Counted from the first letter of the stretch, positions 6,951 through 57,302 are shown. The stretch: DNA of 64,000 bases from an uncultured Armatimonadetes bacterium (GCA_963716175.1 OY970296.1:1293684-1357683), one strand, 5' to 3'. The notes: generated from the letters alone by a model not told the origin. Translations and numbers: made by a program.

Positions 6951-7076
6951 CTAGAGCGCATTTCATAACCTACCGGCTGGCTGGCCGCACCACGCCCTCG
7001 CATGAAATGCGCCGGCCACGGCCTGACGTTGCGCAGTGCTGTTTCATAACCTCCCCTGGGAAGGTTATGAAACAGC
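6951..7076 (+). repeat. R1 structured repeat, copy 1 (126 bp, two hairpins).
   Basis: About 96% identical to 48215-48340. Hairpin 1 gcgcatttcat...atgaaatgcgc (11-bp stem, 35-nt loop). Hairpin 2 is the perfect palindrome gctgtttcataacct-cccctggga-aggttatgaaacagc. Confidence 0.85.
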
Positions 7077-7082
7077 TTCTAA

Positions 7083-7180
7083 CGAGCTTCGCCGAATGAA
7101 GTAACACGGCGAAGCTCAAGAGGCGGCCCAGACGGGCACAGGGCGATGTTCGCACATTACTTCGTTGTGCGAACATCATT
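7083..7180 (+). repeat. R2 paired-hairpin element, copy A.
   Basis: Hairpin 1 (7084-7117) has loop aatGAAGTAACa; hairpin 2 (7145-7177) has loop TTACTTCgt. The same architecture appears at 39076-39180 with different, compensatory stem sequences. Confidence 0.7.
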
Positions 7181-7182
7181 AG

Positions 7183-8703
7183 TCAGGCCACATCCTCGAG
7201 TCGCCGCAAGGCCTCCTGGGCCTCCTCGAAGCCCGGGGACAATTGGAGGGCGCGGGCAAAGCTGGCGCGGGCAGAGGCGAGGTCGCGGCGCGACTCCTGG
7301 ATCAGGCCCAGGTTGTAGCGGAATTCGGCGGCCTCGGGGAGCAAGCGCACCGCCTGCTGGGCCGGCCCCAGGGCGGCGTCATAGTCGCCGCCCGAGTAGA
7401 GGGCCATGGCGAGAGCGTCGTGGGCCTCTGCATTTTCCGGGTCGAGGCCACAGGCGCGCCGAGCCGCCCGCGCCGCACCTGCGAGGTCGCGGCCCTGGGA
7501 AGTCAGGGCGCGCGAGAGACCCAGGCAGAGCTCGCAGTCCTGCTGACCCAGCTCCCAGGCGTCGGCCATGGCGTGCTCGGCCTCCACCGGCTGGCCGGCT
7601 GCCTCCAGCGCCAGGCCCAAGTTGTAATGGACCCAGGGATCACCGGGAGCAAGCCGGGCTCCGCTGCGATAGTGCTCGGCCGAGGTCTCATAGAGGCCGA
7701 GCCCATAGTAGGCGAGGCCCAGCCCGCTGCAGGCCTCGGCGCTGTCCGGGCAGATGCGCTGCGCCGTCTGGTAGGCCTCGAGGGCTTCGTGGTGACGGCC
7801 CAGCTCGAGACAGGCGCGGCCGCGCTCGACCCAGATGTCGGAGTCGCTCGGGTCGAGCTGACCGGCCACTTCAAAGGCTGCGATCGCGGCCTCGTGATCG
7901 CCCAGCTCTCCGTAGGCCAGCCCGAGGTTGAAGCGAGCCACGGGATGGGTGGGGTCGAGAGAAAGCGCGTGCCGGTAGGAGCGGATGGCCTCAGGCACTT
8001 CGCCCAGCCCGCGGAGGGCGTTGCCCAGCTCGCAGGCGGCGGCGGCCCGGCCCTCCTCGTCCTCCTCCGGGTAGTGTTGCAGCGCTCGCTCCAGGTAGTG
8101 GCGCGCTCGCCGGCAATCACCCTGGGCGCTGTGGATTTGCCCGGCGGCGTAAAGCGCCTCATGCCACTCCGGCGCCAGCTCGCAGGCGCGCTCGAACTCG
8201 TGCCGGGCGCGGCCGCGATCGCTGAGCTGCTGGCTGGCCCAGCCCAGCCAGAGGCGGCAGTAAGCTTCGTCGCTACCCAAGGCCAGAGCGCGCTGGTACG
8301 CCTCCGCCGCCTGCTGGAACTCGCCTATCATGTAGTAAGCATCCCCGAGGTCGCGGTGCAAGCATGCGCTTAGCAGGACAGAGCCGCCCTGATTCTCTCT
8401 CACCCCCACCTGATAGTGGCCAATCGCCTCCTGGTATTGGCCCTGCAGGAACAGGACTTCGCCGAGCACGCGCCGGACCGCCGGGTCGGCAGCGGAGATC
8501 TCGACCGCCCGCTGCGCTAACCTCGTGGCCTCCTCCGTGGGCCCTTGCTGTGCCAGGGCCCAGGCCAGGGAAGTGAGCGCTTCCACGGAATCGGGGGCGA
8601 AGGCGAGAGCCTGGCGCCAGGCGAGCATGGCCTGCTCGCGCTGGCCGCTCTCCCACAGCGTCTTGCCGCGCTGATTGTCGCGATCGGCGTCAAGGGACTT
8701 CAT
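7183..8703 (-). CDS. TPR-repeat protein.
   Basis: Multiple 34-aa TPR-like repeats (AYY.G.Y..A...Y..AL.L.P). Confidence 0.8.
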   Translation of the reverse strand: MKSLDADRDNQRGKTLWESGQREQAMLAWRQALAFAPDSVEALTSLAWALAQQGPTEEATRLAQRAVEISAADPAVRRVLGEVLFLQGQYQEAIGHYQVGVRENQGGSVLLSACLHRDLGDAYYMIGEFQQAAEAYQRALALGSDEAYCRLWLGWASQQLSDRGRARHEFERACELAPEWHEALYAAGQIHSAQGDCRRARHYLERALQHYPEEDEEGRAAAACELGNALRGLGEVPEAIRSYRHALSLDPTHPVARFNLGLAYGELGDHEAAIAAFEVAGQLDPSDSDIWVERGRACLELGRHHEALEAYQTAQRICPDSAEACSGLGLAYYGLGLYETSAEHYRSGARLAPGDPWVHYNLGLALEAAGQPVEAEHAMADAWELGQQDCELCLGLSRALTSQGRDLAGAARAARRACGLDPENAEAHDALAMALYSGGDYDAALGPAQQAVRLLPEAAEFRYNLGLIQESRRDLASARASFARALQLSPGFEEAQEALRRLEDVA

Positions 8704-35731: not shown

Positions 35732-35796
35732 GGGGTGCTAGTCTTCGACAGAGGGCCGGCCGGTCCTATGAGAAGGGACGCGGGCCGGGCCGGCAG

Positions 35797-35920
35797 GCGG
35801 GCATGCGGAGATGGCTAGGTCGCCTGGGCGACCGCTGGCTAAGCCCGCCTTCGGCGGGCCGCCATCCCGGCCTTCAGGCCTAGGGACATGGCGGCTCACG
35901 GCCTAGCCACATGCCCGCCC
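35797..35920 (+). repeat. R3 MITE-like element, copy X1, with terminal inverted repeats GGCGGGCATG...CATGCCCGCC and internal hairpin GGTCGCC-tg-GGCGACC.
   Basis: Shares gagatggctaggtcgcctg and ggcctagccacatgcc segments with 57186-57282. Confidence 0.7.
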
Positions 35921-35930
35921 TACAGGGCCC

Positions 35931-37457: not shown

Positions 37458-38147
37458 CTACATACTACGGGAGAGCACAGCGAAAGGCAAGGACGAGGGC
37501 CGCCGATGTGTGACCACGAAGATCAGAGAAGAGAACAAGCTGCTCCGGGAGAGCTGGTTGATCTCACCATAGCTCCAGGAGACCAGGTCCCCATTCCCCT
37601 CCTCCGCCCCGGTGGGGTTGTTCGCCGGGTCGTAGCTGTAGGTGAAGATGGAGATCACCGTCCCGTCCGACTTGCGGTTGCGCACCGCCTGGATTCGGCC
37701 GGCATCGTCGTATTGGGTCTCGGCGCGGCTGCTGTTGCCATAGGTCATGGTGGTGGGCCGGCCCAGGTCGTCGTACTGGTAGGTGCTCACCCCGCCGGTG
37801 CCGCGGTTCACCACCGCGGTTATCCAGTCGCGGGCATTGTAGCTGTAGTCAATGTAGCTGCCCGGCCGCGTCATCCGCGTCCGCCGCCCGCCGTCGTGAT
37901 AGGTGAAGCTCACCGTCACGCTGTTGGGATTCGTCGCCGAGGAGAGCTGGTTCCGCCCGTTGTAATCATAGCTGAACACGTCCTCTCCCGTGACCTGCAT
38001 GCTCGACACCAAGCCGACTCCGTTATACTGATAGGTCGTCGTCTTGGACGTCTCCGCACTCACCGTCACGGATTTCAGCCATTTACTCGGATAGTAGACC
38101 TGGGTCGTGGTGCCCGATGCATCCCGCGTCTCCGTGATTGCTGTCCC
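37458..38147 (-). pseudogene. Rhs/YD-repeat protein fragment (copy 1); no start codon, bounded upstream by in-frame stops.
   Basis: YQYNGVGL, YDYNGRNQL, YQYDDLGRPTTMTY, YSYDPANN repeats; positions 37497-38036 are duplicated at 38796-39437. Confidence 0.6.
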
Positions 38148-38724: not shown

Positions 38725-39437
38725 TTAGAGTACCTCGCCCACGCCCTGAACCTTCTGTCCGTGAAGTGGTAACAGATTCTGGCGGTCCAGCGGGGGCCGC
38801 CGATGTGTGACCACGAAGATCAGAGAAGAGAACAAGCTGCTCCGGGAGAGCTGGTTGATCTCACCATAGCTCCAGGAGACCAGGTCCCCATTCCCCTCCT
38901 CCGCCCCGGTGGGGTTGTTCGCCGGGTCGTAGCTGTAGGTGAAGATGGAGATCACCGTCCCGTCCGACTTGAGATTGCGCACCGCCTGGATTCTGCCGGC
39001 ATCGTCGTATTGGGTCTCGGCGCGGCTGCTGTTGCCATAGGTCATGGTGGTGGGCCGGCCCAGGTCGTCGTACTGCTAATGAATGTCGCCCAAAGAAGTA
39101 ACGGGCGACATTCATCAGAAAGCCAGGGAATGCCTGAAGAAAGACGCTCGCGCAATGTTACTTCATTGCGCGAACGTCGGTAGGTACTCACCCCGCCGGT
39201 GCCGCGGTTCACCACCGCGGTTATCCAGTCGCGGGCATTGTAGCTGTAGTCAATGTAGCTGCCCGGCCGCGTCATCCGCGTCCGCCGCCCGCCGTCGTGA
39301 TAGGTGAAGCTCACCGTCACGCTGTTGGGATTCGTCGCCGAGGAGAGCTGGTTCCGCCCGTTGTAATCATAGCTGAACACGTCCTCTCCCGTGACCTGCA
39401 TGCTCGACACCAAGCCGACTCCGTTATACTGATAGGT
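38725..39437 (-). pseudogene. Rhs/YD-repeat fragment (copy 2), 5'-truncated and interrupted by a 105-bp R2 insertion.
   Basis: Near-identical to copy 1 except for the insertion at 39076-39180 and a divergent tail. Confidence 0.55.
39076..39180 (+). repeat. R2 paired-hairpin element, copy B, inserted into Rhs fragment copy 2.
   Basis: Absent from the otherwise identical copy 1 (gtcgtactg|gtaggtg). Hairpin 1 loop aaaGAAGTAAC; hairpin 2 loop GTTACTTC (exact reverse complement). Confidence 0.8.
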
Positions 39438-46696: not shown

Positions 46697-47815
46697 CTAC
46701 AGCCGCATTGGCATCACGACGTAGATATACTCGGGGTCGTCGGAGCGCTTGAGCAGGCCGGGGCTCTCGGGTCCGCTGAGCTGCCAGACTACGCTGTCCG
46801 AGTCCATAATGCCCAAGGCATCGGTTAGATACTCGGCATTGAACGCGATCTCAATCGCCTCTCCCTCGAGGGTCGCGGCCAGCTCTTCGTAGGCGCGGCC
46901 CACGTCCCCGCTCTCCGCGCTGATGGTCAGGGTCCCGTCGCCGGTGCGGAAGGTGAGCTTGCTCGCCTCGCTGCGCGCGACGATCGCGGCGCGCTTGATT
47001 GCGCCCAGGAGCTGCTCACGGTTGACGGTGATCCTGCGATCGGGCTCCGACGCCAGCAGCCGGCTGTAGTTCGGGAATTGCCCCTCGATCAGCCGGGAGA
47101 TCAGGATATAGGGCCCGACCTGGAACATCATCTGCTGCTCGCCCCCGCGTATCTTCACCGGCGTCTCTTCCGCTCCTGGATCCAGCATGCGATTCAGCTC
47201 CTGGAGGGCGCGGGCTGGGACGATGGCCTGCCACTTGTCTTCCGACCCGAGCAGCTTGGCCTGGTCGGAGGCAGCAGTCTTCACCGCCAGGCGATAGCTG
47301 TCAGTAGCCACCATCTTGAGGCTTTCCCCATCCCTTTCCAGCAGCACGCCCGTGAGGATCGCCCTGGTCTCGTCCCGAGAGGCGGCGAAGATGCTGCTGC
47401 GGATCAGGTCACGCATGCCGGCCTGGCTCACCTCCACCGCGATGTCCCCTGTCACTTCGGGCAGCGCGGGGTACTCCTCGGCCGGAAGGCCATGGATAGT
47501 GTATTGCGACCGCTCACAGCGCAGCTCCAGCAGCGCGCGATCCTGGCTCTGCATTTCAACGGTAGCGTCCGGGAGGCTGGCCACAACGTCTCCCAGGACC
47601 CGCGCGGGCACCGTGAGGGCCCCGGCTTCCTCGGTCTGAATGGGCACCGCGCTCTGGGCGCCGATCTCCATGTCGTAGGCCACTATCCGCAGGTCCCCGC
47701 CTTTGGCCTCAAGCAGGAGATTGCTGAGAATGGGCAGAGTGGTGCGCCCGGACACCACCCTGCTGACATGCTGCAGGGCTTCGTGGAGAACCCTTCGATT
47801 GCAGGTCAGTTTCAT
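46697..47815 (-). CDS. dnaN: DNA polymerase III beta sliding clamp.
   Basis: Full DnaN from MKLTCNRRVLHEAL. The ORF-track 132-aa N-terminal extension crosses the AT-rich origin region and was rejected. Confidence 0.9.
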   Translation of the reverse strand: MKLTCNRRVLHEALQHVSRVVSGRTTLPILSNLLLEAKGGDLRIVAYDMEIGAQSAVPIQTEEAGALTVPARVLGDVVASLPDATVEMQSQDRALLELRCERSQYTIHGLPAEEYPALPEVTGDIAVEVSQAGMRDLIRSSIFAASRDETRAILTGVLLERDGESLKMVATDSYRLAVKTAASDQAKLLGSEDKWQAIVPARALQELNRMLDPGAEETPVKIRGGEQQMMFQVGPYILISRLIEGQFPNYSRLLASEPDRRITVNREQLLGAIKRAAIVARSEASKLTFRTGDGTLTISAESGDVGRAYEELAATLEGEAIEIAFNAEYLTDALGIMDSDSVVWQLSGPESPGLLKRSDDPEYIYVVMPMRL

Positions 47816-48342
47816 CGTCGCTCTCCCTGTGGCAGTGCCGCCACGGTCGCCTACCTGTTCGCTCCTCCCCGGCCAATTCCTTTCCCAACCCAGACCGGTC
47901 CAACCACCTCGTTCCCAGCCAGACCAGCCGACGTTGCTGGAGAAGGTCCGTCGTTCCCCAGAGGAGGTACAGGTCTTGTGGAGCCGAGAGTTGGGGATGG
48001 AGTAGTAGCTGTACTTAGAGAGATAATAATAATAATGATAAGGGCTGTGGATCAGGTGAAAACCACAGGGTAACCCGATGAAGTGGGCGGTTGTTATCCC
48101 CTGGCTGAAGAAGGAAGGCTGCGGATGGTTGTTGATAGAGTGAGCGGTGGCTAGCCGAGAGGTCCGGATTCCCGTGCCTGGCCCGGTGATGCACTTGTTG
48201 TCCACAGGCAAAGGCTAGAGCGCATTTCATAACCTCCCTGCTGGCTGGCCGCACCACGCCCTCGCATGAAATGCGCCTGCCACGGCCTGACGTTGTGCAG
48301 TGCTGTTTCATAACCTCCCCTGGGAAGGTTATGAAACAGCTG
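47816..48342. promoter_or_regulatory. oriC: oriC candidate in the dnaA-dnaN spacer.
   Basis: DnaA-box-like 9-mers TGTGGATCA (48046-48054), TTATCCCCT (48094-48102), TTGTCCACA (48197-48205). AT-rich tract gagataataataataatgataag at 48018-48043. R1 repeat copy 2 sits at 48215-48340. Confidence 0.55.
48215..48340 (+). repeat. R1 structured repeat, copy 2, within the dnaA-dnaN spacer.
   Basis: About 96% identical over 126 bp to 6951-7076. Confidence 0.85.
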
Positions 48343-49710
48343 CTAGCCTTCGGTACGGAGCCTGGCGCCCAGCTCGTTGATCAGCGCTTGCACAGAGCTG
48401 TCCTGCATCTGCTGTCTGATCTTGGTGCAGGCGTGAATGACGGTGGAGTGGTCTTTGCCCCCGAAAGCGCGGGCGATGCTGGGGAAGGAGGCACTAAGCA
48501 GCTCGCGGCAGAGGTACATGGCAATCTGGCGGGCATGGACCACGTCCTGGGTGCGGGTCCGCGCGACCAGCTCGGCGATGGTGAAGTTGAAGTGCTCGGC
48601 CACCAGTTGCTGGACGCGGCTGATGCTGAGGGGTTGTTGGTGGTCCTCGAGAGAGTGATCCCGGAGCTGCTCCGCGGCGAGGGAGAGAGTGATCTCGGCG
48701 TGGGTGAGAGAGGCGGCGGCCAGCACCTTGATGAGGGCACCCTCCAGCACCCGGATATTGGACTTCACCACCTTGGCGATATAGCGAAGGACCTCGTCCG
48801 GGACGGGGATGCTCTCCGCTTGGGCCCTACGGGCGAGGATGGCCAGTCGGGTTTCCATATCCGGCGGCTTGATATCAGCGATCAGCCCCCACTCAAAGCG
48901 AGAGCGGAGCCGGTCGTCCATGATCTGGAGGTCCTTCGGGGGGCGGTCGCTGGTGATGACGACCTGGCGGCCGGTCTCGTAGAGCGTGTTGAAGACCTGG
49001 AAGAACTCGGATTCGGTGCGCTCCTTGGCGGCGATGAACTGAATATCGTCCACCAGCCAGAGGTCCACCTCGCGATACTTCTTGCGGAACGTACCGAAGC
49101 GATCGTCCCGAATGGAGGAGACGACGTGAAAGGTGAAGGTATCGCCGGAGACGTACTGGACGCGAAGGCCGGGATGCTTGGCTGCGCTGTGATGGCCGAT
49201 GGCCTGCATGAGGTGAGTCTTGCCCAGGCCCACGCCGCCATAGAGGAAGAGGGGATTATAGGAGTCGCCGGGCTGGTTCGCGACCGCGAGCGCGGCGGCC
49301 TGAGCAAACTGATTCCCCTTGCCCACCACGAAGTTCTCGAAAGTGTACTTGGGATTGAGGGGAGTGGTGAGGAGGGCCTCGCTCTCACCGCGGGAGCCGG
49401 AGGCCGGGGGCCGCCTGCGGCGGGGCACCTGCTCTTCGAGGGCGAGGTCGAGCTGGGCGAGTTCGAAGTGCGCTTTCAGGGGTCGGCCCACCACTTGCTC
49501 GAGGGCGGCCTCGATGGCCTTGAGGCCATTCTTCTGGAGCCAGTCGCGCGCGAACTCACTGCCGACGGAAAGCTCGAAGGTGTCCTGACCGAGGACCTCG
49601 GGACGTACGTGCTTGATAGAACTCCCGAAAGAGGGGCGAGAAAGCTTGCTGCCCAGCGCCCTTAGCACCTGCTCCCACACCTGCTGCACCGACGGCTGCG
49701 ACTCCCGCAT
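48343..49710 (-). CDS. dnaA: Chromosomal replication initiator DnaA.
   Basis: AAA+ Walker A GGVGLGKTHL, Walker B LWLVDDIQF, C-terminal DNA-binding domain. Confidence 0.95.
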   Translation of the reverse strand: MRESQPSVQQVWEQVLRALGSKLSRPSFGSSIKHVRPEVLGQDTFELSVGSEFARDWLQKNGLKAIEAALEQVVGRPLKAHFELAQLDLALEEQVPRRRRPPASGSRGESEALLTTPLNPKYTFENFVVGKGNQFAQAAALAVANQPGDSYNPLFLYGGVGLGKTHLMQAIGHHSAAKHPGLRVQYVSGDTFTFHVVSSIRDDRFGTFRKKYREVDLWLVDDIQFIAAKERTESEFFQVFNTLYETGRQVVITSDRPPKDLQIMDDRLRSRFEWGLIADIKPPDMETRLAILARRAQAESIPVPDEVLRYIAKVVKSNIRVLEGALIKVLAAASLTHAEITLSLAAEQLRDHSLEDHQQPLSISRVQQLVAEHFNFTIAELVARTRTQDVVHARQIAMYLCRELLSASFPSIARAFGGKDHSTVIHACTKIRQQMQDSSVQALINELGARLRTEG

Positions 49711-50006
49711 GCCTCCCCCTTGTCCGACTGGTGCGAGCCGCCCGCTCGCCCAGCGCTCGGCGGTACCGGCCAGAATCAGAACCGGAGGCCAGAGTCGGAG
49801 ATGGGAGCCCAGCCCGCGCGGGCCGGAGGGCGCAATCCCCAGGACACAGATCGGCTGTGGATTGGCTGCGCAAGCCTAGATGTTGGACAGGGAAAAAGAT
49901 GCGATAATTGCTGGCTTTTTACGGGTCAGCCTTCAGGCCCTCGCCCTCTGCAAAACCCGGTATCATGTGCGGGCCCCGATGGAGTCAGGCACCAGGCTAG
50001 CCTAAC

Positions 50007-50037
50007 AATCCACAACACTATCAACACCTGTGGATAA
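50007..50037. promoter_or_regulatory. Cluster of DnaA boxes upstream of dnaA: AATCCACAA, CTATCAACA and a perfect TGTGGATAA.
   Basis: Seen directly. A second AT-rich stretch follows at 50120-50160 (gagtttttttgccctacaaagtgatcgctagtatagc). Confidence 0.6.
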
Positions 50038-50289
50038 CTTCCCCGACCCTCACGGGCACCCTCATAACTCACCCAAATCCGACGGCGCGGACTATAGCAT
50101 ACTGCCCACTCATTGGCAAGAGTTTTTTTGCCCTACAAAGTGATCGCTAGTATAGCTAGCAGGCGCCCACTATGTCATCGTTTGCGATCACCGCGCGCGA
50201 GCAGGTGAGCAGCAAGAGACATGGTAGAAGAAAGCGCGCACGCGCAATCTTACCGCGCACGTTGGTACCGCGCAAGAGGAGGCCGCGAA

Positions 50290-51755: not shown

Positions 51756-53780
51756 CTACATGGGCAGTTCGAACGCCCTCGCCACGTACACCGCCATCTG
51801 GTCGCGAGTCACCTCCCGCGCGGGCTGATAGGTGCCGTCGTCATAGCCCTTCACCACGCCGTTATCCAGGCAGGCCTTGATCGCCACGCCCGACCAGAAG
51901 CCGGCCGGCACATCCGGGAAGAGCTGGGCGGCGGTGTCGAGGGCGTCAGTGAGCTTGACCCATCCCTTCGCGCGGGCGATGAACACGGCCATCTGGCCGC
52001 GGTCCACGGGATCGGCGGGGCTGTAGATGGTATCGGTGTAGCCTTTCACCACGTTGCTGCTGACTGCGTACTCCACATACCTGAACGCCCAGTGATCGGT
52101 CGCCACATCGGAGAACGTCGCGGTGGCTGGGCCCGTGGGCACGTTCGCATCCCCTTTCGCCAGCGCGCGGGAGATGTACACCGCCATCTGATCCCGAGTT
52201 ACGGGGTCGGTCGGCTTGTAGGTGCCGTCAGCGTAGCCCTTGACGATGCCTGCCGCACAGATGGCCTCGATCTCCCAGAGCGCCCAGTAGGGATCGGACG
52301 TCGAGGAGATGACATCCGAGAAATCGCTCGCGGGCAGCGACCACATGAGGCCCAGGTCTCCGAGCCATGGGTAGCTGTCTATCTGTGCGGTGACCACGTT
52401 GTTCGCCGGGTCAACCGTGGATGGCTTGCTGAAGTAACTGCGTGCCTCCGGGTCGTAGACGAACAGCGAAAGGTGAGCTTCCGCGGCCGCGGGGATTTCG
52501 GTGTCGTCATAGGTCATCGCCACGGTGATGGGACCGCTGACCTGCGCGGTGGTCTGCACATGGAAGAACGGCTCGACCGCCACTTGGTCTGGCCCCAGCG
52601 CCGCCGGGAACGCCTCCTCCCGGATGATGCTGGTCCAGCCCTCCTTGTCCACCTCTGAGAAGGTGACGCTGGTGTTGTCCACTGTCACCGCGGGGTGCGT
52701 CGAGGTGGTGTTCGGGCCCGCCCAACTAAGCCAGTTATCCCAATTCTCATCATAGGTGAGGCGGGTGAGCTGCCCGGTGTTAAGGTCATAGAGCCACACC
52801 TCGCGCTGGTACCAGCACATGGGGCCACTCGGATCGAACGGCAGGGCAGCGACGAAAGCGATCTGGTCGCCCAGCGGGGACCATTGCGGTCTCTGGGGGC
52901 CGACCATGTTCCGGATATCCGAGAGCCAGGGATGGTCGGCGGGCTGGAAGTTGTACTTGGCGATGTGGGCTTCGATATCGGAGTCCTTTAGGAACTGCTG
53001 CACAAGCACCTGCGGATGGCTGCCATCCGCGTTGGCCAGAACGAGCTGCCGCCAGACGCCGGACTCGCCGGAAACCGTATCAGACTGCTGCGTGGAATAG
53101 AGCAGCGCTGAGCCATCGCGCGACCACCTTGCATCCTGGTGGTCGGGGCCCGGGAGGATGCTGACATTGGCGCCAGTGACGTCCGCGGCTACACAACCCC
53201 CGCTCCCGTCGTCGCACAAGAGGCGGGATCCGTCTGGCGCCCAGCTCGGGAACCAGGTGGTGTAGGTCGCCTGGGGCATCCACTGGCGGAGGTTGGTGCC
53301 GTCGGCCGCCATCAGCCACACCTGGAAGCCCGCTTCGCACGTGACCTGCCCCACAGCAGGGGCGGCATGCTGGAAGGCGATAGTGCGGCCGTCCGGCGAC
53401 CAGGCCGCGATGCAGTTGACCCCGCCCAAGCCAGCCGGGCCTGTGAGGTTGACAGCGCCGGTCCCGTCCAGATTCGCCACCCAGATTTCGCCCGTATTGG
53501 CGTGGAACAGGTCGCTCGTGGTGCGGACGTCGTAAGCCACCTTCGTCGTGTCAGGCAGGCTCTCGCCATTGCCGAAGACGGTCTGAGGCGTCACCACCGC
53601 GTCCGAGGCGCCATCCATGATGTACCCGAGGGGAGCGCCGCTCTGATCCCAGCCCGAGACGAGCAGCTTCCCCTCGATCGGCACCCCCGCGGCGCGCGCG
53701 GGCGAAGGCATCGAGACCACGAAGGTGAGCCAGACGAATACCATCACGGCAGCGATTCGCCAGAGACTGCGAGCAGCCAT
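51756..53780 (-). CDS. Cell-surface protein with N-terminal signal peptide, TolB-like beta-propeller repeats and three C-terminal SLH domains.
   Basis: WSPDGRTIAF, WAPDGSRLLC, WSRDGSALLY, WSPLGDQIAF; three SLH repeats (KGY.DGTY.P...VTRDQMAVY). Confidence 0.8.
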   Translation of the reverse strand: MAARSLWRIAAVMVFVWLTFVVSMPSPARAAGVPIEGKLLVSGWDQSGAPLGYIMDGASDAVVTPQTVFGNGESLPDTTKVAYDVRTTSDLFHANTGEIWVANLDGTGAVNLTGPAGLGGVNCIAAWSPDGRTIAFQHAAPAVGQVTCEAGFQVWLMAADGTNLRQWMPQATYTTWFPSWAPDGSRLLCDDGSGGCVAADVTGANVSILPGPDHQDARWSRDGSALLYSTQQSDTVSGESGVWRQLVLANADGSHPQVLVQQFLKDSDIEAHIAKYNFQPADHPWLSDIRNMVGPQRPQWSPLGDQIAFVAALPFDPSGPMCWYQREVWLYDLNTGQLTRLTYDENWDNWLSWAGPNTTSTHPAVTVDNTSVTFSEVDKEGWTSIIREEAFPAALGPDQVAVEPFFHVQTTAQVSGPITVAMTYDDTEIPAAAEAHLSLFVYDPEARSYFSKPSTVDPANNVVTAQIDSYPWLGDLGLMWSLPASDFSDVISSTSDPYWALWEIEAICAAGIVKGYADGTYKPTDPVTRDQMAVYISRALAKGDANVPTGPATATFSDVATDHWAFRYVEYAVSSNVVKGYTDTIYSPADPVDRGQMAVFIARAKGWVKLTDALDTAAQLFPDVPAGFWSGVAIKACLDNGVVKGYDDGTYQPAREVTRDQMAVYVARAFELPM

Positions 53781-54091
53781 CGCACACCCCCTCTGCGCCT
53801 CGGCGCAAGTCCGAACATGTGACCCGCAAGGGCCCGCCGACTCCGTCCAGTATAGACCGTGGGCGGCGGGTATCGGCCGGAGGCCGTTACCCGCCCTCCA
53901 GTCACATCAGCAGGTCGAACGCCCGCGCGACGTAGACTGCCATCTGGTCCCGGGTGACCTCGCGCCCGGGCTGGTAGGTGCCGTCGTCATAGCCCTTCAC
54001 CACGCCGTTATCCAGGCAGGCCTTGATCGCCACGCCCGACCAGAAGCCGGCCGGCACATCCGGGAAGAGCTGGGCGGCGGTGTCGAGGGCG

Positions 54092-55891
54092 TCAGTGAGC
54101 TTGACCCATCCCTTCGCGGGCGATGAACACGGCCATCTGGCCGCGGTCCACGGGATCGGCGGGGCTGTAGATGGTATCGGTGTAGCCCTTCACGACCTTC
54201 TGGTCCACGGCGTACTGGACGTACTTCAGCGCCCAGTTCCCGGCTGGCACGTCCGTGAAGGTCGGCGTGCCGGTGAAGTCCGGCACGTTGCCGTCGCCGC
54301 CCGCCAGCGCGCGGGCAATGTAGGTTGCCATCTGGTCTCTGGTCACTTGTCCTGCTGGAGCATAGGTGCCGTCGGTGTAGCCGGCGACGATGCCGGCGGC
54401 GTAGGCGGCTTCGATCTCCCACAAGGCCCAGTAGGGATCGGCCGGGTCGGAGGACACGTCGGAGAAGTGGCTCGCCGGCAGCGGCCAGGAGAGGCCCATG
54501 GTGCCGAGGGCGGCCGGCTGGCCGGAGATCACATTGTTCGCGACGTCGCGGGTGACGGCCAAGTTCGTCCACTGGTCTGCCGCATCGTCGTAGCAGAGGA
54601 GCGCGAGATGACCCTGGGCAGTCGCCGGGACGTCCGCGTCCTGGTAGGTCATGGACACGGAGATGGGACCGGCAACCTGAGCTGTGGTGTGTATCTGGTA
54701 GAACGGCGCGGCTGCCAATTGGGGGGCCGGCAGTGCCGGCGGGCTGTCGTCCAAGATGATGGTGGTGAGGCCCGGCTCAGTCACTTCCGAGAAGGCAACG
54801 GTCGTGTTGTCCACCGTAACCTGGGGGCTGTCCGGGTAGGTGTTCTCTCCCTGCCAGCTCAGCCAGGTATCGAACTTCAGGTCGTTCGTGATCCTGGTGA
54901 GATCGCCGTCGGAGAGCGTGTAGATCCACACCTCGACCTGCTGCCGGTAGTCAGGCCCGTCCGGGTCGAACGGCAGCGCGGCCAAGAACGCGATGCGGTT
55001 GCCCTTGGGGGACCACTGCGGGAAGAGCGGCCCCGCCCACCACTCCAGGTCGGCCGCCCAGTCTCGCTCCGACGTGTCAAGCCCGAGTCGCGCCACCATC
55101 GCCTGGGCGTCCGAGTGGTTGACGAACTGACGCACCAGTGTCTGTGGGTTGTCGCCGTTGATGTCGGCGACGCGTAGCTCTCGCCAGACGCCTGGCTCGC
55201 CGTTCACGGTGTCCTCTTCAGCCCAGGTGCCGGCAACGTGGCGCGCATCGGGCGAAATGTCCGCCCCCTCCCCTCTCACATTTGGGAGGGTCTGGACGTT
55301 GCTGCCATCCAGGTCTATGAGCACTGCATTCGACTGCCCATAGACGGCGCAGATCAGACTGTGCCCGTCGGCCGACCAGCCCCCTACTTTGGGCGAAGCC
55401 ATCCCCACTGGACTCACGCGACGCGCGTTGCTGCCGTCGGCATTCATCACCCAGACCTCGAACCCCGTGTCACAGGGCTGCTGTCCCGGGACCGGGTCAA
55501 CGTGGCGGAAGGCGATCTGACTGGCGTCGGGTGACCAGGACGGGAAGCAGTTGATGCCGGAGAGGCCGGCCACCTGGCTCAGGTTGGTTTGGGTGGAGCC
55601 ATCGAGAGAGGAGAGCCAGATATCGCCGGACGTGGTCCACGGATCACCCGCTGTTAGCTGGTGGGCGAGCGCGTCTCCGAGCGGGGAGACATCCGCATGC
55701 TCGATCTCCGCGGGCCAGGCCGTGACCTGATCCGAACTCCCCTGCAGGTAGTAGGCATACGCGCTGATCTGCAACTCATAGCCCGATACCCACAGCTTCC
55801 CCTCGATAGGCACCGGGGCAGTGCCGGCCATCGCCGCCGACGCCCAGATGCAGCAGGCCACCACGATACACATCATCAGCATCGCGCGCAT
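54092..55891 (-). CDS. Paralogous SLH-domain beta-propeller surface protein.
   Basis: Same architecture as the first SLH propeller. The C-terminal SLH-coding DNA is near-identical to 51760-52060. Confidence 0.8.
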   Translation of the reverse strand: MRAMLMMCIVVACCIWASAAMAGTAPVPIEGKLWVSGYELQISAYAYYLQGSSDQVTAWPAEIEHADVSPLGDALAHQLTAGDPWTTSGDIWLSSLDGSTQTNLSQVAGLSGINCFPSWSPDASQIAFRHVDPVPGQQPCDTGFEVWVMNADGSNARRVSPVGMASPKVGGWSADGHSLICAVYGQSNAVLIDLDGSNVQTLPNVRGEGADISPDARHVAGTWAEEDTVNGEPGVWRELRVADINGDNPQTLVRQFVNHSDAQAMVARLGLDTSERDWAADLEWWAGPLFPQWSPKGNRIAFLAALPFDPDGPDYRQQVEVWIYTLSDGDLTRITNDLKFDTWLSWQGENTYPDSPQVTVDNTTVAFSEVTEPGLTTIILDDSPPALPAPQLAAAPFYQIHTTAQVAGPISVSMTYQDADVPATAQGHLALLCYDDAADQWTNLAVTRDVANNVISGQPAALGTMGLSWPLPASHFSDVSSDPADPYWALWEIEAAYAAGIVAGYTDGTYAPAGQVTRDQMATYIARALAGGDGNVPDFTGTPTFTDVPAGNWALKYVQYAVDQKVVKGYTDTIYSPADPVDRGQMAVFIAREGMGQAH

Positions 55892-56412
55892 ATCCCCCTC
55901 CGTTCTGCACATGCTTCCCCCGCGGCCCGGGGGGCGCCAGCCTGTGTCAGGCCGACCCGCCCATTATACCACTCGGCGCGGACGGAAGAGCGCACAATCG
56001 CAAGGTTTCTGGCTGCTAAGTGACGGTGGCAAGCCCCTGCCCGACCCGTGACAGCATCCGACCGCTGCGCGCCATACAGAGGCGGGGCAGCTACTGCTGG
56101 GCGCGCGCGGCTGGCCTTGCGGGAGGTGGGGTGGTGTGCTATACTCAGCCAGTCACGGCCCCGGCCCGTTTGGGCCGGGTGTCTTTCACTTAGAGTCTCT
56201 AACAGAACCGGCAACAATATCCACAGATGACGCAGATTACTCAGATTGATCTTGCGTCAATCTGCCGAATCTGCGGACTCATCTGTAGTTCCGTCAGAAG
56301 CTCTTAGAGGCCGCGAGCCGGCGGGCGTGTGAATGGCTAGGCCCTTCGGGCCGCCATGGCGGTCCGAGCAGTCGAACCTAGCCACGCCCGCCCTACAGAT
56401 TGGGAGGGTGGA

Positions 56413-56931: not shown

Positions 56932-57302
56932 AGACCTCGGCGAGCGTCACCGGTGGTCTGGGGCGCGCCGCCCGCGCGGGCATTGCCCTGGTGCGGAGCT
57001 ATCAGCAGTGGATGAGCCACCTGAAGCCGCGGACCTGCCGCTATTACCCATCGTGTTCCCAGTACGCGGTGCGCGCCATCGCGGCGCGAGGCCTGATCCG
57101 GGGTGGCCTGCTGGCGGCCTGGCGCGTGCTGCGGTGCAACCCCTTCTCGGCCGGGGGATATGATCCGGGGCCGTGGGAGGCAGAGGAATCGGGCGGCGGG
57201 CATGCAGAGATGGCTAGGTCGCCTGCCGCGACCGCCGTGCCGGCCGAAGGCCTAGCCACATGCCGGCCCGACAGGGCCCGAGTGGGAGAGGGCGGCAGAT
57301 GA
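56928..57302 (+). CDS. yidD: Membrane protein insertion efficiency factor YidD, with a C-terminal extension encoded by an inserted R3 repeat.
   Basis: CRYYPSCSQYA...LRCNPFSAGGYDPGP core; the ORF then reads through 57186-57282 to TGA 57300-57302, which overlaps the yidC ATG. Confidence 0.7.
   Translation: MKTSASVTGGLGRAARAGIALVRSYQQWMSHLKPRTCRYYPSCSQYAVRAIAARGLIRGGLLAAWRVLRCNPFSAGGYDPGPWEAEESGGGHAEMARSPAATAVPAEGLATCRPDRARVGEGGR
57186..57282 (+). repeat. R3 MITE-like element, copy X2 (internally shorter).
   Basis: ggcgggcatgcagagatggctaggtcgcctg...ggcctagccacatgccggccc; aligns with 35797-35920. Confidence 0.7.

Follow-up and report, generated by a model that had tools for sequence, protein, structure and literature searches.

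A probable miniature inverted-repeat transposable element at the dnaA stop codon, beside a candidate replication origin, in an uncultured Armatimonadota bacterium

A 126-bp repeat with two hairpins, designated R1, occurs twice in a 64,000-nucleotide stretch of DNA from an uncultured Armatimonadetes bacterium (GCA_963716175.1 OY970296.1:1293684-1357683), referred to below as the window. One copy (copy A) lies in the spacer between dnaA and dnaN, beside a candidate oriC, and the other is designated copy B. We interpret R1 as a miniature inverted-repeat transposable element (MITE), that is, a non-autonomous cut-and-paste DNA transposon, and put the probability of this reading at about 0.87. It is based on the dispersed copies, the terminal inverted repeats, the TA duplication, and filled and empty insertion sites. 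The initial annotation of this DNA had named a MITE among its options, and the same four lines of evidence favor that option. DnaA homologues place the organism of the window in Armatimonadota.

The two copies align without gaps and are identical at 121 of 126 bases (96.0%), as expected from the initial annotation, which had described two 126-bp copies about 96% identical; a repeat finder lists them as a 139-nt pair with 95% identity. The length given initially is correct, but the position is not, as the true ends lie 3 bp further to the right. In the 64-kb window, an nhmmer family profile matched copies A and B and no third copy. Each copy had been placed between minus-strand genes, and the open reading frame (ORF) positions agree. 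Copy A has the dnaA stop (48343-48345) on one side and the dnaN start (47815) on the other, and copy B is bordered by a TPR-like ORF, whose stop is at 7183, and by the next ORF on the minus strand. The element and its parts have the following positions.

48218-48343, plus strand: putative MITE copy A, long two-module form, 5'-GAGCGC...CAGCTGC-3' (97-copy alignment, flank statistics, filled/empty pair)
48216-48217, no strand: left TA target-site duplication of copy A (junction statistics, filled/empty pair)
48344-48345, no strand: right TA target-site duplication of copy A (sequence reading, spacer alignment)
48218-48234, plus strand: left terminal inverted repeat of copy A, GAGCGCATTTCATAACC, with bases 48220-48230 doubling as the 5' arm of hairpin/module A (97-copy alignment, inverted-repeat scan)
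48266-48276, plus strand: inner arm ATGAAATGCGC, the 3' arm of hairpin/module A (sequence reading, folding)
48302-48316, plus strand: 5' arm of hairpin/module B, GCTGTTTCATAACCT, carrying a direct repeat of the left-end TTTCATAACCT
48326-48343, plus strand: 3' arm of hairpin B and right terminal inverted repeat, AGGTTATGAAACAGCTGC
6954-7079, plus strand: putative MITE copy B, 126 bp (gapless alignment with copy A)
6952-6953 and 7080-7081: TA flanks of copy B

In hairpin A of copy A, GCGCATTTCAT (48220-48230) pairs with ATGAAATGCGC (48266-48276) across a 35-nt loop, and hairpin B is a perfect 15-bp stem formed by GCTGTTTCATAACCT (48302-48316) and AGGTTATGAAACAGC (48326-48340). The arms in copy B are the same, offset by 41,264 bp to the left, and the two hairpins noticed initially are present in both copies.

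The initial annotation had proposed a BLASTN comparison of the unit, and this returned many dispersed copies, each with different flanks. Among the matches listed, the whole two-hairpin unit is found at 120 places in 106 loci with 73-98% identity, and each of the 97 distinct full-length copies that were aligned lies in a different flank. A scan with the pattern TTTCATAACCT-N(4-16)-AGGTTATGAAA found 48 loci when one genome per species was used and at least 120 loci in metagenome contigs. The element is 126-133 bp long and has no conserved coding capacity. Its hosts include metagenome-assembled genomes (MAGs) labelled Armatimonadetes, "uncultured bacterium SRP068000_co4_104" and "Ca. Hebobacteria" as well as many sediment metagenome contigs, and "Bacillota bacterium CSMAG_728" has at least 14 loci, including several contig ends. 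There are at least three subfamilies, which have both ends, the inner arm and the right hairpin in common and an entirely different left-hairpin loop. Five copies with 91-98% identity to that of the window (L087, L115, L064, L150, and L111) occupy other contexts, indicating that this subfamily was recently active.

Hairpins that match the 22-base pattern with other loop lengths, without the rest of the element, were found in Rothia and about a dozen other taxa and were rejected as chance terminator-like palindromes. The Rothia species (L003, L006-L008, and others) have a conserved 36-nt hairpin at an orthologous locus, with the arms TTTCATAACCT/AGGTTATGAAA and nothing else of the element.

The ends of R1 are imperfect terminal inverted repeats, 5'-GAGCGCATTTCATAACC and, on the opposite strand, 5'-GAAGCTGTTTCATAACC, with the consensus 5'-GAGCGC...GCTTC-3'. 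Beyond the duplicated TA and the G, 11 of 16 positions match. The ends are kept in the 97 copies and were also recovered by an inverted-repeat scan of the window. The junctions of the 97 copies follow the pattern x/TA/G-AGCGC...CAGCTT-C/TA/y, and about 90% of them are flanked by TA at both ends. On the left, the outer base (x) is C in 74% and the inner base is G in 93%; on the right, the inner base is C in 97% and the outer base (y) is G in 61%. A 4-bp (YTAR) or 3-bp duplication was rejected, as copies with GTAG or TTAG on the left still have a right tetramer that starts with C (1 match in 25).

A filled and an empty version of one site could be compared directly. The filled site in L112 reads CCCTA[GAGCGC...TCTTC]TACTGTC, and the empty site in the 93%-identical L037 reads CCCTACTGTC. 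One TA has become two, which is an exact TA duplication. A second filled/empty candidate (L072/L094) was not used because its junction was too diverged. As read from these junctions, the duplication is a 2-bp TA in the preferred context CTAG. This tetranucleotide occurs 53 times in the window versus 195 times expected, a ratio of 0.27. At L059:10777-10975, and also in L086, the element lies between two units of about 35 bp (TATCCCCC.YGGG....CGCACTCCTAGCTA) with about 75% identity. Either a two-unit repeat was the insertion target or the duplication was aberrantly long, and the unit does not belong to a tandem array.

The junctions frequently coincide with stop codons. A junction TAG closes an open frame of at least 100 codons in 60 of 194 cases, compared to 31 and 35 in two control frames, and Pfam domains were found in 7 of the 10 such frames tested, including FtsA, GluRS, URO-D, and GH4. 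Because both ends of the element begin with G, a TAG or TAA stop is regenerated as TAG and the upstream protein remains intact. Stop codons, including that of dnaA, are therefore tolerated landing sites, and the terminal G gives a TA/CTAG-targeting element in a 67%-GC genome access to them without harm to the gene. The two ends account for 27 and 33 of the stop-closing junctions, with no end or strand bias, and this equal use argues against a strand-specific single-strand mechanism.

R1 has a modular structure. The arms of module A are GAGCGCATTTCAT...ATGAAATGCGC and those of module B are GCTGTTTCATAACCT...AGGTTATGAAACAGC, and the long form consists of A, a linker, and B. In addition to 96 TA-flanked long forms, there are six TA-flanked short A/B hybrids in which the left end is joined to the right end (L010, L043, L075, L078, L102, and L173). 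Each module also occurs alone between TA flanks, module A at L111:79-139 (ends GAGCGCATTTCAT and ATGAAATGCGCTC) and module B at L106:3981-4023. In the long form, two short palindromic modules are fused. The forms A, B, A+B, and A/B hybrid, together with an 81-bp deletion described below, illustrate the origin of MITE size variants by recombination between internal direct repeats.

Two observations concern single modules. L111:1-142 matches window positions 7104-7177, the region of a terminator-like hairpin on the right side of copy B, with 97% identity and then diverges. Its stand-alone module A is inserted 2 bp after the terminator-like hairpin, a strain-level rearrangement at the copy B locus. 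Single hairpins resembling module B were found at L027:7500-7556 (Phycisphaerae MAG contig) and L029:1221-1282 (Thermodesulfobacteriota MAG contig), with up to 21 nt in common with the module B end (CTAGAAsCnGTTTCATAACCT) and with outer stems that co-vary. Either this type of end has spread across phyla or the contigs were mis-binned.

Orthologous dnaA-dnaN spacers were obtained via DnaA homologues and then aligned. The relevant features of the window are as follows.

48343-49710, minus strand: dnaA (homology; Pfam Bac_DnaA on the 98%-identical contig L173), whose stop overlaps the insertion junction
46697-47815, minus strand: dnaN, 372 amino acids, starting MKLTC... (homology; Pfam records for the 98%-identical contig)
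48012-48206, no strand: candidate oriC core in the dnaA-dnaN spacer, outside the element (box-like 9-mers and AT tract)

The dnaA frame on the minus strand ends in ...GAA GGC TAG, where TA is 48345-48344 and G is the complement of element base 48343. The target before insertion was the center of a short palindrome, AAGGC-TA-GCCTT. The window has the 126-bp long form at the dnaA stop and a spacer of 527 bp. In L173 (98% nucleotide identity), the same TA holds a 45-bp single hairpin, and the spacer measures 446 bp. In L170 and L172 (DnaA 82% identical), the sequence reads ...ACC TAG CGGG... without an element, and the spacer is 387 bp. L169 (DnaA 81% identical) also has no element, but it has a different stop codon and dnaN is not adjacent. 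This comparison, which had been suggested as a way to recognize an insertion, identifies the element as such, with the site empty in L170 and L172. The L173 form can be derived from the long form by removing the 81 bp between direct TTTCATAACCTxCC repeats (TTTCATAACCT) and making two substitutions. The motif TTTCATAACC, correctly noted at the outset as common to the 5' arms of both hairpins, coincides with the endpoints of this deletion. Copy A thus entered the TA of the dnaA stop after the lineage split from the relatives with 82% DnaA identity, and a deletion of 81 bp between the TTTCATAACCT repeats left the single hairpin of the sister strain.

The elements of the candidate origin lie outside R1. 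A near-consensus DnaA box (TTGTCCACA) is located at 48198-48206, 11 bp from the element, and the stretch from the element to dnaN also contains three further DnaA-box-like 9-mers (48046, 48094, and 48130) and an 83%-AT 30-mer (48012-48041). The density of box-like sites is 10 per kb in the spacer versus 1.3 per kb across the window. In the relatives, the DnaA boxes and the AT-rich tract are partly conserved, outside the element. Copy A is an insertion specific to this lineage that borders the candidate origin and is best regarded as a passenger rather than a component, and the insertion would be neutral for dnaA, dnaN, and origin function. A second cluster of DnaA-box-like sites is present upstream of dnaA (49711-50220), with a perfect TTATCCACA at 50029-50037, and the gene orientation switches there. 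The origin may be bipartite or on the upstream side of dnaA.

The hairpins were also examined by folding and by pairing statistics. The 15-mer arm has 4 exact matches in the window versus 0.36 expected by chance, and 5 matches when one with 3 mismatches is included, a number reached in 0 of 100 shuffles. The fold z-scores of the two strands are -5.2 and -5.4 relative to dinucleotide shuffles. At gathering level, Rfam matched only tRNA-Pro in the whole window and the element had no family; in E-value mode, the region 47700-48450 gave matches at chance level only. No terminator-like site was found in 47600-48500 and there is no U-tract after either hairpin, and an intrinsic terminator was rejected because a GC-rich hairpin with a U-tract was not found in that interval. 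A conserved RNA fold was rejected as well: RNAalifold recovered only the right hairpin, and the loop of hairpin A is wholly different between subfamilies. In the alignment of copies, 0 of 11 pairs of helix A are compensatory and only pair-breaking decay is seen. In helix B, 5 of 15 pairs show a compensatory double change, in one sequence each, compared to 0.4 expected and with 0 of 500 shuffles equal. At the left end, TAACC does not pair in hairpin A and yet is conserved, as expected if the end is bound by protein in double-stranded form. Each hairpin appears to be a pair of inverted end-like sequences rather than an evolved RNA fold. The element also contains a 15-codon Cys-rich ORF (MKCACHGLTLCSAVS followed by a stop; 48266-48313 and 7002-7049) that runs from an ATG in the inner arm to a TAA in the module B arm. 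The frame stays open in the major subfamily (MKCACWSLAACAAVS followed by a stop) but not in the third (CTG, TGA), and is probably a relic or due to chance.

Mobilization of R1 would require a transposase supplied in trans, which would bind both ends and direct the element into a TA, with duplication of that TA. As judged solely from the target signature, the most likely driver would be a DDE transposase, either of the IS630/Tc1-mariner type or of the IS5/IS427 group. IS630 and ISY100 insert into TA and duplicate it (PMC2170065), and the title of Tenzen & Ohtsubo 1991, as cited there, gives TA within 5'-CTAG-3' as the preference of IS630. Elements of the IS5/IS427 group produce 2-bp duplications (PMC3281130 Table 2).

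Several results weigh against the MITE interpretation. No autonomous partner with these ends was found in the window, where the inverted-repeat scan also gave no pair resembling an insertion sequence (IS), and 1.27 Mb of related loci contained neither an autonomous partner nor a recurrent transposase-like ORF beside the copies. Pairs of TTTCATAACC end motifs 0.5-3.5 kb apart, searched in all loci, were found only in L035 (Thermotogota contig), probably a chance pair. BLASTN against plasmid and phage collections gave no match, and in viral contigs the two 17-nt ends gave 13 and 1 matches, about chance level. The compensatory changes in helix B are a weak hint that the palindrome itself may be maintained, whereas plain transposase binding needs no compensation. 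The search pattern fixed the exact core of the right hairpin, and the conservation of that core is therefore partly due to ascertainment. Finally, GC skew is positive across the whole window with no sign change at dnaA, and the oriC is a candidate.

When ORFs were clustered across loci, the sole recurrent neighbors were Gfo/Idh/MocA oxidoreductases, which are common housekeeping-type genes, and the orthologous Rothia locus. A phage lineage with CTAGAAGCTGTTTCATAACC was rejected, since it lacks a transposase and, within 5 kb, a partner end. The duplicated segments at 37.5-39.4 kb were rejected as an IS because they encode RHS/YD-like fragments.

Except for an identified parent, R1 has the features of bacterial MITEs, of which RUP, Correia, and ERIC have TA ends (PMC2229807). 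It resembles RUP and other MITEs mobilized by IS630/Tc1-mariner elements in being noncoding, about 100-130 bp long, and bounded by terminal inverted repeats, in inserting into and duplicating TA, and in having many mostly intergenic copies with high mutual identity (PMC2229807). The CTAG preference is likewise that indicated for IS630 by the title of Tenzen & Ohtsubo 1991 (cited in PMC2170065). However, R1 has no sequence similarity to RUP, and its hosts are Armatimonadota and other uncultured MAGs. The ends of RUP match IS630-Spn1, whereas R1 has no cognate IS in the searched sequences. R1 also consists of two modules, each of which exists alone too. Like the Correia/NEMIS elements of Neisseria, R1 duplicates TA, occurs in longer and shorter variants distinguished by an internal segment, has predicted stable hairpins in its transcript, and inserts close to genes. 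Correia is likewise not known to have an autonomous parent element. Its sequence is unrelated, however, and it has one long inverted-repeat stem in contrast to the two separate hairpins of R1, for which there is no evidence of an integration host factor (IHF) site or promoter. The ends of the IS427 group begin with GA or GG, and those of R1 begin with GAG and GAA. This group shares the 2-bp target duplication (PMC3281130 Table 2), but no IS427-like transposase or matching ends were found for R1. The M. tuberculosis element IS6110 in the dnaA-dnaN region is similarly a mobile element beside the origin, strain-polymorphic, and tolerated (PMC3701491). In contrast to R1, which is 126 bp, non-autonomous, and exactly on the dnaA stop, it is an autonomous 1.36-kb element of the IS3 family. 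R1 defines a MITE family with no earlier record, abundant among uncultured bacteria of the Armatimonadota-like kind.

It is compatible with a MITE origin, although improbable, that the element has been secondarily exapted genome-wide, with the hairpins serving as stabilizers of 3' ends or as RNase targets and the outward-facing GGAGG-N2-ATG restarting or extending translation. Both ends carry such outward motifs, a Shine-Dalgarno (SD)-like sequence and an ATG. The spacing between GGAGG and ATG is only 2 nt, however, and a 2-nt spacing between SD and ATG is poor for initiation. The outward-facing ATG is also the source of the MKCAL ORF starts, which the initial annotation had rightly traced to the element. 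In-frame fusions into downstream ORFs occur at window position 6966 and at 2755 in L037, but in-frame cases are expected by chance in one-third of insertions. Many copies lie directly after gene ends, yet neither hairpin is followed by a U-tract, and the 15-codon internal ORF is absent from one subfamily. Functional motifs have been reported for Correia and ERIC (PMC2229807).

We also consider it unlikely that the family goes beyond a selfish MITE dependent on a standard IS. One version of this proposal is a transposase that is not of the IS630/IS427 type, and it arises because no partner was found, because module B-like elements occur in MAGs labelled as other phyla, and because the palindrome is apparently maintained through compensatory changes. 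The other version is a specialization for stop codons, in which ends that start with G rebuild TAG and could allow the element to colonize the 3' ends of essential genes, among them dnaA, ftsA, and gltX. If this were true, it would place a very stable hairpin and an outward ribosome-binding-like ATG at operon junctions, where they would regulate the downstream gene (here dnaN).

Single-stranded mobilization by a Y1/HUH tyrosine transposase, as in the palindrome-associated transposable elements (PATEs) of IS200/IS605 and in REP/REPIN-RAYT systems, is very unlikely. Under such a mechanism, the two hairpins would be recognition structures and CTAG the cleavage or target tetranucleotide. R1 is like these systems in being a short dispersed palindromic repeat in which each end lies near a hairpin, with a conserved tetranucleotide next to it. 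The two similar hairpins with directly repeated 5' arms, the CTAG adjoining the foot of each, the five compensatory changes that keep the right hairpin paired, and the missing DDE partner speak for this mechanism. However, PATEs and REP/RAYT elements insert strand-specifically and without duplication, while the symmetric x-TA-G...C-TA-y junctions of R1, with variable outer and fixed inner bases, indicate a TA duplication rather than duplication-free insertion 3' of a fixed target, as does the change from one TA to two in the L112/L037 pair. The ends are used equally beside gene ends (27 versus 33) with no strand asymmetry, the conserved unpaired TAACC fits a double-stranded protein-binding end, and hairpin A shows only pair-breaking decay with no compensatory change. 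The PATE-like option of the initial annotation is not supported, given the symmetric duplication, the lack of end or strand asymmetry, and the conserved TAACC. No Y1/HUH transposase gene was seen beside the copies, although no dedicated search of host genomes was made.

The least probable reading, and a highly improbable one, is that copy A functions in cis at the origin or in dnaA/dnaN expression (as a cruciform, protein site, or RNA structure) and that copy B is a regulatory duplication: the proximity to a DnaA box in a box-rich spacer, the occupation of the site in two strains that differ by 2%, and the very stable folds on both strands are outweighed by an orthologous spacer that is empty in L170/L172 while the DnaA boxes and AT-rich tract are conserved there, by the loss of 81 of 126 bp in L173, by about 100 occurrences in unrelated contexts, by the lack of an Rfam match or terminator-like site, and by the position at the extreme spacer edge, on a stop codon. 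Co-option at the origin, as proposed initially, is thus not supported, because the orthologous spacer is empty, the sister form is deleted, and the edge position lies outside the box and AT core.

Recognition of R1 as a MITE removes a false lead, as the hairpins beside the candidate origin represent a recent transposon insertion and no origin element. The family also has practical consequences. It breaks metagenome assemblies, with many contigs ending inside the element, and it gives rise to spurious MKCAL/MKQLL ORF starts; masking it should improve the annotation of these MAGs. The presence/absence and long/short polymorphism at the dnaA stop is a handy strain marker, like IS6110 at dnaA-dnaN in M. 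tuberculosis.

The window also contains other repeats. A second dispersed repeat, unrelated to R1, occurs at 35791-35930 and 57190-57279; the two copies are about 90% identical and differ by an internal indel of 51 bp. The repeat carries inverted arms (GGCGGGCATGC.../...GCATGCCCGCC), with GGCTAGG/CCTAGCC in its interior, and may be another MITE or REP-like family. The segments at 37494-38036 and 38791-39437 are 98-100% identical duplicates that encode RHS/YD-repeat-like peptide fragments. The 38-42 kb stretch that holds RHS/YD-like segments has a low GC content of 0.60-0.63 and a GC skew that turns negative, and it may be a foreign or rearranged island. Tandem paralogous minus-strand genes at 51756-53780 and about 53900-55900 encode large secreted proteins with C-terminal SLH-like repeats, and they have 74-94% DNA identity over the 3' 500 bp.

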